Shown: positions 1-3,000 of the stretch, one piece after another
How the letters are laid out: each line of letters opens with the position of its first letter
Numbering within the stretch: position 1 is the first letter of the stretch
From: Escherichia coli
Lineage (GTDB): Bacteria > Pseudomonadota > Gammaproteobacteria > Enterobacterales > Enterobacteriaceae
DNA: 64,000 nt
Reading direction: 5' to 3' (one strand)
Assembly: GCF_003334335.1 (NCBI RefSeq)
Contig: NZ_QOWQ01000008.1
Position numbers: made by a program

Positions 1-3000
1 CCCGCCAGGCGCTGGAACGCTTTCGCGCGCTGCTGCCGGAGGATGAGAGATGAAAACCCTGGCGACAATCGGCGATAACTGCGTCGATATCTACCCGCAA
101 CTGAATAAAGCGTTTTCTGGCGGTAATGCGGTCAATGTGGCGGTGTACTGCACTCGCTACGGCATACAGCCGGGATGCATTACCTGGGTGGGTGACGATG
201 ACTACGGCACAAAGCTGAAGCAGGATCTCGCCCGCATGGGCGTCGATATCAGCCATGTCCATACGAAACACGGCGTTACCGCACAAACTCAGGTGGAACT
301 GCACGACAATGATCGCGTTTTTGGCGACTACACCGAAGGCGTGATGGCCGACTTTGCCCTGAGTGAAGAGGATTACGCCTGGCTGGCGCAGTATGACATT
401 GTGCACGCGGCAATCTGGGGACATGCGGAAGACGCATTCCCACAGCTGCACGCTGCGGGCAAACTTACCGCTTTCGACTTCTCCGACAAGTGGGACAGCC
501 CGCTCTGGCAGACACTGGTGCCGCATCTCGATTTTGCCTTTGCCTCCGCACCGCAAGAAGACGAAACGCTGCGTCTGAAGATGAAAGCGATTGTTGCCCG
601 TGGCGCAGGAACAGTGATTGTCACGCTGGGTGAAAACGGCAGCATTGCCTGGGATGGCGCGCAGTTCTGGCGTCAGGCTCCTGAACCGGTGACGGTTATC
701 GACACCATGGGTGCCGGAGATTCGTTCATTGCCGGATTCCTTTGCGGCTGGTCTGCGGGGATGACATTACCGCAGGCGATAGCGCAGGGAACGGCGTGCG
801 CGGCGAAAACCATTCAGTACCACGGTGCCTGGTAGGTATAACGTTGGCGTGAGCATCTTCACGCCAACGTGCTGTTACTTGCCGGAAAACGACCCTATAA
901 TCCGAGTAATTCATTCTTTATTTCAGGGTCGATTATGTCAGCTACGGACCGCTACTCTCATCAACTCCTCTACGCTACCGTCCGCCAGCGACTGCTGGAT
1001 GATATCGCGCAGGGGGTTTACCAGGCCGGGCAACAGATCCCTACCGAAAACGAGCTTTGTACACAATATAACGTCAGCCGCATTACCATTCGCAAAGCCA
1101 TCAGCGACTTAGTGGCAGACGGCGTACTGATCCGCTGGCAGGGAAAAGGCACCTTTGTACAAAGCCAGAAAGTTGAAAACGCCCTGCTTACTGTCAGTGG
1201 TTTTACCGATTTTGGCGTCTCACAAGGCAAGGCGACGAAAGAGAAAGTGATCGAACAGGAACGGGTCAGCGCCGCGCCGTTTTGCGAAAAGCTGAACATC
1301 CCCGGAAACAGCGAAGTGTTCCATCTCTGCCGGGTGATGTATCTCGATAAAGAGCCGCTGTTTATTGATAGTTCATGGATCCCGCTGTCGCGTTATCCTG
1401 ACTTTGATGAGATTTACGTCGAAGGAAGCTCCACCTATCAGTTATTTCAGGAGCGTTTTGACACGCGAGTGGTCAGCGACAAAAAGACCATCGATATCTT
1501 TGCCGCCACCCGCCCGCAGGCAAAATGGCTGAAATGCGAACTGGGCGAACCGTTGTTTCGCATCAGCAAAATCGCCTTTGATCAGAATGACAAACCGGTG
1601 CACGTCTCCGAACTCTTCTGCCGCGCCAATCGCATCACCTTAACTATTGATAATAAAAGACATTAACCGTAGGCCGGATAAGATGCGCCAGCATCGCATC
1701 CGGCGATGCTGGCGCGTTGAATTTTACATCCCGTACGTTCCCCTCACCCTAACCCTCTCCCCAAAGGGGCGAGGGGACCGTTCAGTACGGAATTTAGCTT
1801 GACGGTGCTATCCAGCATTAAATACTGGCAATACTCTCACGCAAAATCCGCAGCACCGTCTCTTCACCGCTGCGATTCGGGTTAATGCGAATCGCACAAT
1901 GTTCTGATTGTGGATTCGCCTGGCGAAACGTTCCGGAAAGGCGATAAAAGAGCGGCGGGATTTCATATTTCGACTCTGCACCCACCGGGTAAGGCAAGGC
2001 ACCGCGCTTTTGCGCCTCTTCCAGCACTCTGGCGGCAATCGGCTGATGAAACTCGACAATCAACACCTTCGACTGCGCATTAGCAATCACCGCGCTTTTC
2101 ACTTCCGGCACCGCACCACCGTTAAGCAAAGCCAGCAACCGTTCAGATACCCCTGCCTGCACCGCGTGCATCACTGGCGCAAACACCAGACCACGCAATA
2201 CTTCCAGCGCCTGTGCGCCCTGGATCTGGCTACCGCCGGAGTAAAGCGTGGCGCGAATACGGTTGATAACATCAGCATCGCCGACCACTGCACCAACACC
2301 CTCTGGCCCAAATAGCTTGAAGCAGGAAAATGTCGAGACATTCGCGCCGCATTCACAGCCGATTCGAGCCACCTTCATCACCGCATAGTTGTCATCGGTT
2401 AACGCTGGAACACCTGCCGCGCGCAACGTTGCCAGCACATCTGCCAGCACGTAGCTGTCCTGCGGCTGCTGGCGCGTATGCTGCACCAGCGCCGCATCCG
2501 GTTGTTGCTCGTCGACGACCTGCTTCAGTGCCGACAGGTCATTGAAATCAACAGTAATAAGCGTCAGCCCCATCTGCTCAATAATAACCCGTGTCGTCGG
2601 GTAAACAGGCGCGTCATGCACCAGAAGACGCTGCCCCGGTTTGAGCAAAGCCGCCAGCCCGGCGCGAATCGCGCCAGTCCCCGCGCCCTGCACCAGCGCC
2701 GCAGCCTGTGCGTGAAATGCATCAGCCAGCACCTGTTCCACACGCTGGGTAACGCGCGGTTGATTCAGTCCTGGCGTTAAGCCTAAATCACCGCCAGTAA
2801 GAAACTCGCTGCCGGGGAAATGGCGACAAATGCTATCCACCAGCGCAAACTGCTTTTGCTGCGCCTCAATAATCGTCAGGCTTTGCAGAGGAAACGTCTT
2901 CATAGGTGCCTTCCTTAAGCCGGAACGAACAGGCCAAGCCAGTAAAGAACATTCAGCAGAATACCGGTGATCATTACTGCCACGACCGGTGCCGCCATTT

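Follow-up and report, generated by a model that had tools for sequence, protein, structure and literature searches.

The frlR-yhfS gap and its palindrome

The genes frlR and yhfS are convergent, and the gap between the end of frlR at 1666 and the yhfS stop at 1818 contains a REP element directly adjoined by a GC-rich palindrome; positions are those of the window, the whole 64,000-nucleotide stretch of Escherichia coli DNA analysed. The REP has a perfect 13-bp inverted repeat (1685-1697 / 1703-1715) and a sub-threshold match to the REP-derived Rfam family naRNA4 at 1672-1731, which does not cover the core of the palindrome. The palindrome itself lies where a preliminary description had placed it, at 1741-1780, and reads ccctcaccctaaccctctccccaaaggggcgaggggaccg, exactly as first quoted. 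No motif is common to it and the REP consensus (a GCCGGATG...CATCCGGC-type palindrome), and the distinction drawn earlier between the two is borne out, their sequences being unrelated. An open reading frame running across both repeats (1647-1802, plus strand, 51 aa, TTG start) was rejected as spurious, a product of the repeat sequence.

The palindrome is an already catalogued repeat, number 15 of the 23 copies in K-12 MG1655 of an element named in turn BoxC (Bachellier, Gilson, Hofnung and co-workers, 1990s), PIT (Hoyne, Maher and co-workers, 2000-2002) and TMECO (PMC4666352); nothing later than 2015 was found in the literature searched under these three names. Its true core runs from 1740, one base before the start given earlier, to 1775, and the minus-strand reading of these 36 nt (1775-1740), CCCTCGCCCCTTTGGGGAGAGGGTTAGGGTGAGGGG, corresponds letter for letter to TMECO no. 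15 (type 'A mm', MG1655 3,504,892-3,504,857) as catalogued by Holder et al. 2015 (PMC4666352, Table 1). Window positions are converted to MG1655 coordinates by an offset of 3,503,117, and the core coordinates were verified on NC_000913.3. The published consensus, 5'-CCCTCNCCC N3-6 GGGNGAGGG N3 GGGNGAGGG [G/T/C/-]-3', spans 35 nt; searched as CCCTCNCCCN3-6GGGNGAGGGN3GGGNGAGGG, it has a single match in the window, at 1741-1775 on the minus strand with the trailing G at 1740, where 0 are expected (100 shuffles). The features are as follows.

1672..1715, strand not assigned: neighbouring REP, context only, outside the BoxC family
1726..1792, minus: extended BoxC unit, core plus family flanks, inside the inverted repeat 1724-1749 / 1767-1792
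1740..1775, minus: BoxC / PIT / TMECO core, three blocks, two loops and trailing G (1740), type 'A mm'
1775-1767, minus-strand reading: core block 1, CCCTCGCCC
1766-1762, minus-strand reading: core loop 1, CTTTG
1761-1753, minus-strand reading: core block 2, GGGAGAGGG
1752-1750, minus-strand reading: core loop 2, TTA
1749-1741, minus-strand reading: core block 3, GGGTGAGGG
1753..1775, plus: first-noted stem-loop, formed by blocks 2 and 1 around the loop CAAAG (9 pairs, one mismatch)

The core, composed of one C-block and two G-blocks, shares with the published family its three-block architecture, the TTA second loop of type A and the G.A mismatch denoted 'mm'. The stem quoted in the preliminary description, CCCTCTCCCC (1753-1762) / GGGGCGAGGG (1766-1775), is the RNA minimum-free-energy structure, with 9 pairs, one T.C mismatch and an energy of -17.2 kcal/mol; in an alternative RNA hairpin block 3 pairs with block 1 (1739-1749 with 1766-1777, -19.7 kcal/mol). 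Against dinucleotide shuffles the 40-mer fold has a z-score of -1.9, and of -0.7 on the other strand; these values are weak because C-runs and G-runs fold well in whatever order they are shuffled, and the fold by itself is therefore not clearly above chance. The signal beyond chance is the recurrence of the element.

Similarity runs past the core into an imperfect palindrome, as BoxC membership demands. The stem sits inside a larger imperfect palindrome at 1724-1792, the extended unit is ~60-65 nt long, and the literature gives the BoxC palindrome as ~56 bp (table in PMC2267715); the fold of the 76-nt unit has z-scores of -3.3 and -3.45. On the minus strand the left flank is CCGTACTGAACGGTC (1790-1776) and the right flank GAACGTACGGG (1740-1730), whose first G is the trailing G of the core, and an outer stem, CCGTAC (1731-1736) / GTACGG (1785-1790), surrounds the core. 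Alignment of the 15 type A copies of K-12 shows conserved flanks, GnGCnCGnACGGTC ... GAAnA..GnCnGCA, with ~14 nt in common on each side of the core. Copy no. 15 retains GAACGGTC and GAAC as its inner flanks, and its outer stem is a variant one: its outer flank in K-12 is GTAC/GTAC, whereas most BoxC copies, and also the frlR-yhfS copies of O157 and MLI121, have GCGC, GTGC or GCAC, and its right flank lacks ~6 nt found in most type A copies.

Copies of the element in E. coli

No further copy was found within the 64-kb window with up to 3 mismatches allowed, and the evidence for a family was therefore taken from outside it. All of the published copies (23/23) were recovered from K-12, at 18 loci, and a BLAST search with the 76-nt unit finds 96,160 places in 5,426 complete E. 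coli genomes, with a median of 19 per genome and a range of 2-35; the element is multi-copy in every one of these genomes, and 366 of the places are on plasmids. The earlier suggestion of a separate small repeat family is thus correct, the family being one already published, and the genome-wide count it called for shows a multi-copy element. A chance GC-rich palindrome unrelated to any family, which the weak 40-mer z-scores and the lone occurrence in the window might have indicated, is refuted by the exact 27-position consensus match, the K-12 copies with their common flanks, and the genome counts, and we give it no credence. Rfam searches at permissive thresholds return nothing credible over the element, the mir-9193 and antizyme-frameshift matches (E = 1-9) being noise.

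Each of the 18 K-12 loci is intergenic by annotation (7 convergent, 9 tandem and 2 divergent), with no significant bias in gene context (P = 0.14 in each tail). The frlR-yhfS copy, likewise intergenic, multi-copy and flanked by family sequence, differs in no respect of kind. It goes along with the frl operon side of the gap, and by default we regard it as a passenger repeat without a locus-specific function. The main use of its re-identification is correct annotation, as neither a terminator nor a new family.

Termination and RNA 3' ends

The preliminary description also raised the possibility of a terminator, and an intrinsic terminator, possibly bidirectional and serving both convergent genes, would fit a G/C-rich hairpin that is stable on both strands and lies downstream of a stop codon. 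Unlike intrinsic terminators, however, the element has no U-run 3' of the stem on either strand (plus-strand tail GACCGTTCAG, minus-strand tail GAACGTACGG) and no upstream A-tract, and a scan for promoter and terminator consensus sequences calls no site at it; the sole terminator-like call nearby, a hairpin at 1704-1719 followed by AATTTTACAT, is at the neighbouring REP. Earlier reporter tests, as cited by Holder et al. (PMC4666352), gave no promoter or terminator activity, and the adk and ilvC transcripts read through other copies to canonical terminators that lie further on (497,939 and 3,959,531). In the Term-seq tables of Adams et al. 2021 no 3' end is listed in the frlR-yhfS gap under three conditions, which says little either way because frl expression is low in these data (55 reads per 800 nt). 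The same study (supplementary file 2) places a Rho-dependent termination region on the frlR-sense strand.

1855 (MG1655 3,504,972), plus: peak of the Rho-dependent termination region

This region lies ~80 nt downstream of the element, its peak coordinate being coarse and its statistic derived from 800-nt windows; reads upstream and downstream are 55/33 untreated and 66/144 with bicyclomycin (Rho score 3.64, p = 1.3e-6). We infer that the element is not a terminator at the RNA level. The terminator reading is unsupported at this locus and largely refuted, and we consider it very improbable in spite of one further point in its favour, that RNA 3' ends lie 4-12 nt 3' of the same hairpin at four other K-12 copies (no. 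17, 2, 7 and 20).

3,781,065, plus: lldD 3' end at copy no. 17, +4 from the core, within a Rho region; intrinsic-terminator score 1.3
164,636, plus: 3' end at copy no. 2, +5 from the core
624,567, minus: 3' end at a further copy, +12, core identical to that of no. 15
3,959,467, minus: 3' end at a further copy, +4 from the block 1/2 hairpin

The score of the analogous lldD end is below the intrinsic-terminator threshold of 3, and in RNA folds each of the four ends directly follows a hairpin with an energy of -18 to -20 kcal/mol. These ends come from one study, the Term-seq tables of Adams et al. 2021, in which eight other copy loci have no 3' end in their 1-kb bins. Their enrichment at BoxC copies has P ~1e-4 under a uniform null and 0.017-0.13 if ends concentrate in intergenic DNA, and is only suggestive.

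A parallel is offered by the REP / BIME repeats, which like BoxC are palindromes scattered through intergenic DNA and transcribed as part of 3' UTRs, and which form stable hairpins without a U-tract, with 3' ends at some copies a few nt 3' of the stem and Rho acting further downstream. The sequences are unrelated, REPs number several hundred whereas BoxC has ~20-30 copies, and only BoxC has a third G-block able to form a triplex; we know of no transposase associated with BoxC, of the RAYT type or otherwise. REP / BIME elements are reportedly stabilisers of mRNA 3' ends and partners of Rho-dependent termination (Newbury 1987; Peters 2012), and by analogy BoxC may play the same role.

Trimming by exonucleases back to a stable stem after Rho termination is established as a general mechanism (Dar and Sorek 2018, PMC6061677). 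Compared with that class, copy no. 15 has the downstream Rho region, 3,504,972(+), with no 3' end listed at the copy itself, and the full pattern, a mapped end a few nt 3' of a stable U-less stem with bicyclomycin-sensitive read-through further on, is found at no. 17, 2, 7 and 20. At the frlR-yhfS locus, frlR-sense transcripts would cross the element and be stopped by Rho ~80 nt downstream, and the stable U-less hairpin would then probably block 3'-to-5' exonucleases in a REP-like manner, and in doing so set the steady-state 3' end.

1779..1780 (MG1655 3,504,896-3,504,897), plus: predicted, not observed, frlR-sense 3' end after trimming, by analogy with no. 17 (+4) and no. 2 (+5)

Under such a barrier the frlR message, on induction, would end at about this position. 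The C-rich strand (16 C and 0 G at 1740-1762) might contribute to Rho loading. The 'mRNA-stabilising structure' of the preliminary description is plausible for copy no. 15 only by analogy, and we put forward tentatively, as a possible though doubtful generalisation, that BoxC RNA hairpins are not inert and act as REP-like exonuclease barriers defining the 3' ends of Rho-terminated mRNAs. The account of earlier functional studies given in PMC4666352 has no in vivo effect of the family; despite such negative tests, the 3' ends that follow the hairpin at 4 of the 23 K-12 copies make a REP-like RNA role testable. If true, BoxC would gain a positive molecular role for the first time, after ~30 years without one.

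Recombination, triplex formation and possible mobility

As DNA, the element has acted as a substrate in recombination and deletion. In some strains there is a second, identical copy beside trpS, and E2865 has both. The single copy of O157:H7 is a hybrid of the frl-side and trpS-side copies with the crossover inside 43 nt of identity, and the 7.7-kb yhfS-yhfZ deletion therefore arose by recombination between two element copies. The O157 trpS-side junction was sought in the window and is absent, because on the trpS side K-12 has REPs and no element copy; 1,866 genomes carry the trpS-side junction. A 52-nt deletion internal to the element is present in 91 genomes, the MLI121 allele being an internal deletion of this size, and structural breakpoints at the frlR-yhfS locus lie at the element edges. 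BoxC copies are demonstrably substrates of strain-specific deletions, and O157:H7, in losing yhfS-yhfZ, offers a clear-cut example of BoxC x BoxC recombination.

Instability at these loci has also been ascribed to non-B DNA, in which the G-rich strand, when single-stranded, would form a triplex that stalls replication or repair and creates local instability, perhaps selected for. In vitro, the G-rich strand of precisely this type of sequence forms an intrastrand triplex, as CD and NMR show for oligonucleotides of types A and B whether or not they carry the mismatch, and causes polymerase stops; the G-to-C control oligonucleotide of that study derives from exactly the no. 15 sequence, and TMECO loci were more variable than control loci (PMC4666352). 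The 52-nt deletion and the breakpoints at the element edges could be read in the same way. BoxC also resembles H-DNA mirror repeats in its homopurine/homopyrimidine-rich blocks, its capacity for a purine-motif triplex and its variability at loci; its triplex, however, is intrastrand and needs single-stranded DNA, and none was detected by in vivo DMS footprinting or in duplex form (PMC4666352). The commonest subtype (14/23 copies) carries a mismatch within both triplex and hairpin. For the largest rearrangement, ordinary recombination between two identical direct repeats of 43 nt is explanation enough, and insertion, deletion and recombination suffice for variability around a dispersed repeat. 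Repeat homology, enough in itself for the rearrangement at frlR-yhfS, is a simpler account of the 'genomic instability', and a causal role of the triplex is in our judgement unlikely.

Mobility of a non-autonomous kind (MITE-like or REP/RAYT-like), or recognition by a dedicated protein whose specificity drives conservation, would be compatible with dispersed intergenic copies varying in number from 2 to 35 by strain, with the 366 plasmid places, and with the inverted A+B pairs of K-12, which have a conserved spacer of ~28 nt in common. The three-block pattern also recurs in distant phyla, where it has been greatly amplified within particular lineages (Mitsuaria, at least 150 copies; a Methylomirabilota MAG; Contendobacter) that have loops and flanks of their own; covariation counts show no clear dependence between the centre bases of blocks 1 and 3 among the Mitsuaria copies. 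An outer palindrome is present around the core. Among the strains compared, the frlR-yhfS locus yielded neither a target-site duplication nor an empty site with clean boundaries: the frl-negative strain is missing the entire frl island along with the REP and the element and is therefore uninformative on insertion boundaries, and the MLI121 variant is an internal deletion. Holder et al. (PMC4666352) found no mobile-element link, and we regard mobility or a dedicated binding protein as a rather improbable explanation.

Overall, we are highly confident that the element is best explained as a dispersed BoxC / PIT / TMECO passenger copy, a recombination substrate and not a terminator, with a hairpin that probably serves as an exonuclease barrier. 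Beyond the passenger explanation, the recurrence of the pattern in distant phyla hints at a shared constraint or a mobilising mechanism.

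A catalogued repeat in the frlR-yhfS gap

The gap between the frlR stop (+ strand, gene end 1666) and the yhfS stop (- strand, 1818) spans 1667-1817, and over this interval the window and E. coli K-12 MG1655 do not differ (offset +3,503,117). It contains the following features:

1667-1716, a REP
1724-1792, a larger imperfect palindrome around the element
1740-1775, minus strand, core of the GC-rich palindrome (the element)
1753-1762 and 1766-1775, the two arms of a G/C stem, CCCTCTCCCC and GGGGCGAGGG

The sequence quoted for 1741-1780 in the preliminary description reads exactly as given there, and the REP that it placed beside the element is real and unrelated to it in sequence. 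The stem that it proposed coincides with the predicted RNA minimum-free-energy structure (9 pairs, one mismatch, -17.2 kcal/mol), with weak z-scores relative to dinucleotide shuffles (-1.9 and -0.7 for the + and - strands); the stem alone is not clearly above chance, because shuffled C-runs and G-runs all fold well. The 76-nt segment, by comparison with its own shuffles, folds better on both strands (z = -3.3 and -3.45).

The element occurs once within the 64-kb window, and a sensitive BLAST search of 1722-1797 against 5,426 complete E. coli genomes returned 96,160 places (median 19 per genome, range 2-35). It is therefore not a single-copy sequence, and the suggestion that it belongs to a separate small repeat family is borne out. 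The family is the TMECO motif of Holder et al. 2015 (PMC4666352), described earlier as BoxC and then as PIT, with the consensus CCCTCNCCC-N3-6-GGGNGAGGG-N3-GGGNGAGGG; this matches the window once, at 1741-1775(-), where no match is expected. Table 1 of that study gives 23 MG1655 copies, including:

MG1655 3,504,892-3,504,857, minus strand, TMECO no. 15, CCCTCGCCCCTTTGGGGAGAGGGTTAGGGTGAGGGG, 'A mm'

These coordinates, checked on NC_000913.3, are the site of the element, and this specific copy has therefore already been catalogued. Petrillo et al. 2008 (PMC2267715) likewise recovered BoxC among the known stem-loop families of E. coli, and their table gives 22 copies by HMM and, from the literature, a length of 56 bp and 32 copies. 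The element is a BoxC / PIT / TMECO member on every defining feature that could be tested, already known and listed, and it is neither a REP nor an intrinsic terminator. Two by-products of the analysis are modest and worth a note, namely RNA 3' ends at four copies and a deletion between BoxC copies in O157:H7.

Architecture and distribution of the family

All 18 K-12 loci were fetched and 23/23 copies were reproduced at their published coordinates. Alignment of the 15 K-12 copies of type A (those with a TTA second loop) extends the similarity ~14 nt beyond the core on each side, with shared flanks GnGCnCGnACGGTC (left) and GAAnA..GnCnGCA (right), giving a unit of ~60-65 nt that is consistent with the 56 bp given for BoxC. 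Copy no. 15 keeps the inner flanks (minus strand; GAACGGTC left of the core and GAAC right). Its outer stem in the K-12 allele (1731-1736 / 1785-1790) is GTAC/GTAC, where most other copies have GCGC, GTGC or GCAC, and the O157:H7 (strain TX 376-2, L019 2783-2790 and 2828-2840) and MLI121 alleles of the same locus have GCGC/GTGC. The K-12 changes on both sides perfect the outer stem, a single case that may reflect templated, template-switch correction of a quasi-palindrome. In K-12 a conserved spacer of ~28 nt is common to the five A+B inverted pairs, and single type A copies retain its start. The 18 K-12 loci lie between 7 convergent, 9 tandem and 2 divergent gene pairs, with no significant bias relative to a 1:2:1 expectation.

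When the exact consensus was run against species-representative genomes, with copies counted among the matches listed, the outcome agreed with the report of the motif in more than 260 genomes (Holder et al., PMC4666352). The motif is massively amplified in the betaproteobacterium Mitsuaria chitosanitabida, whose fetched loci (L031-L102) contain at least 150 copies, and among the matches listed there are 13 copies in a Methylomirabilota MAG (L023-L030) and 3 in a Contendobacter MAG (L038-L040). Loops and flanks are lineage-specific in all three; in the Mitsuaria copies listed, loop 1 is nearly always GCTTGC, the right flank is TCTTCGGGCT, and inverted pairs are frequent. E. coli, Mitsuaria and Contendobacter have the same T/G polymorphism at the central base of block 1 (the C-block of the core), which gives rise to the 'mismatch' subtype. 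Holder et al. (PMC4666352) found no link between the motif and plasmids, phages or transposons. Plasmids account for 366/96,160 BLAST places, and one of 154,743 bp (NZ_CP074792.1) carries an exact copy of the 38-nt core at 1627-1664.

Transcript ends around the locus and at other copies

One of the roles proposed in the preliminary description is termination. There is no U-run after the stem on either strand, and a promoter/terminator consensus scan made no call at the element, its sole hit being a REP-proximal hairpin at 1704-1719 followed by AATTTTACAT. According to Holder et al. (PMC4666352), an earlier PIT study detected neither promoter nor terminator activity and saw no effect in vivo. 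Adams et al. 2021 (PMC7815308) give in their supplement 1078 Rho-termination regions and sets of Term-seq 3' ends from three conditions (1175, 882 and 1053 ends); in none of the three conditions is a 3' end, the evidence that the preliminary description had proposed to consult, tabulated in 3,504,000-3,505,999. A Rho-termination region is tabulated at 3,504,972(+), corresponding to window 1855, with upstream/downstream reads of 55/33 untreated and 66/144 with bicyclomycin (Rho score 3.64, p = 1.3e-6; PMC7815308). The region is antisense to yhfS and, read in the frlR sense, lies ~80 nt beyond the element; its peak is coarsely positioned, since the statistic was computed over 800-nt windows. Just downstream of the element and directed antisense into yhfS is a weak sigma-70-like match (1799-1826, +; TTGACG, 16-nt spacer, AATACT; 9/12 positions), which could contribute to the + strand reads behind the Rho call. 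Rho regions are also present downstream of copies no. 5 (388,499, -) and no. 14 (3,390,148, -). The adk and ilvC transcripts read across a copy to canonical terminators beyond it (497,939 and 3,959,531), and those of gcvP and ppiC stop before reaching theirs. Taken together, these results leave the terminator reading unsupported.

The other proposed role, RNA stabilisation, is addressed by curated Term-seq ends lying just 3' of the hairpin at four K-12 copies.

Term-seq 3' ends adjacent to BoxC copies (MG1655 coordinates)
3,781,065, +, copy no. 17 (C-rich reading), 4 nt beyond its core, 'primary' end of lldD
164,636, +, copy no. 2 (C-rich reading), 5 nt beyond it, hrpB-sense
624,567, -, copy no. 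7 (C-rich reading), 12 nt beyond its core
3,959,467, -, copy no. 20 (G-rich reading), 4 nt beyond the block 1/2 hairpin

Folds of the 51-nt terminal segments place a 9-bp G/C hairpin (-18 to -20 kcal/mol) 4-10 nt upstream of each of the four ends. The lldD end has an intrinsic-terminator score of 1.3 and is within a Rho region, and the core of copy no. 7 is identical to that of the element. This geometry is that of the Rho-terminated transcripts of Dar and Sorek 2018 (PMC6061677), which end a few nucleotides downstream of a stable U-less stem with Rho termination further on, and which in their model are trimmed back to the protective stem-loop by PNPase and RNase II, a role shown earlier for REPs; BoxC is not mentioned in that study. 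At least four ends in 46 windows of 15 nt has P ~1e-4 under a uniform null and P = 0.017-0.13 if intergenic DNA is taken to be enriched for 3' ends, such that the enrichment is only suggestive, and eight copy loci have no nearby Term-seq 3' ends. The same hairpin is predicted in frlR-sense RNA at the frlR/yhfS locus, with its 3' edge at 1775-1777. A stabilising role for copy no. 15 is a possibility with indirect support, by analogy, and would place an end at window 1779-1780; the element is REP-like in position and possibly in its RNA role.

The fepB/entC control region contains an A+B pair of the element, and the 624,567 end follows copy no. 7. A very abundant end at 624,680(-) in the fepB 5' UTR (L007 ~681; 103,563 and 243,213 reads in two conditions) is 4 nt upstream of copy no. 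8 in the fepB leader.

Structural variation at the locus

Searching with the gap and both gene ends reveals three structural states. The K-12-like order frlR-REP-element-yhfS is present in 2,953 genomes. In frl-negative strains yhfL adjoins yhfS without REP or element, and homology to K-12 begins at the yhfS stop. In O157:H7 (TX 376-2, L019 2765-2865) frlR-REP-element abuts trpS, the whole yhfS-yhfZ block is absent, and homology to K-12 stops at the outer flank of the element. This O157-type junction (element end plus trpS 3' end) is found in 1,866/5,426 genomes, including E2865, which also has the K-12-type copy. Its two copies have identical cores and are direct repeats 7,699 bp apart:

L143 856-890, copy 1, frlR/yhfS
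L143 8555-8589, copy 2, yhfZ/trpS

The yhfZ-trpS region is polymorphic (window 9395-9490 versus L143 8500-8610), K-12 having REP/BIME sequences without a second copy and E2865-type strains a BoxC copy that comes within 11 nt of the trpS stop. In a three-way alignment the single copy of O157 (corresponding to window 1740-1786) proves to be a hybrid: its left flank is that of copy 1 apart from one substitution, its right flank matches copy 2 exactly, and the crossover falls in 43 nt over which the three sequences are identical. The 7.7-kb yhfS-yhfZ deletion of O157:H7 is therefore the product of recombination between two direct repeats of the element.

A smaller deletion of 52 nt (window 1720-1771) takes out most of the element in 91/2,953 frlR+ yhfS+ genomes, including 042, and leaves GAGGGGACCGTCCGG in MLI121 (L021 ~569/570). 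These states agree with the unusual variability of TMECO loci reported by Holder et al. (PMC4666352), who did not detect a triplex in vivo, and repeat homology with local deletion can account for the variation at frlR/yhfS, with no need for a triplex.

Two pseudogenes were noted at these loci. In O157:H7 TX 376-2 frlD is annotated as a pseudogene with an internal stop (L019 1101-1886), and the frl operon beside the retained element may therefore be decaying in this lineage. In AST19 (L022) the annotation of yhfS (669-1245) is a frameshifted pseudogene, with ~44 extra bases inside the gene, and the sequence of the frlR-yhfS gap in this strain is the same as in K-12.
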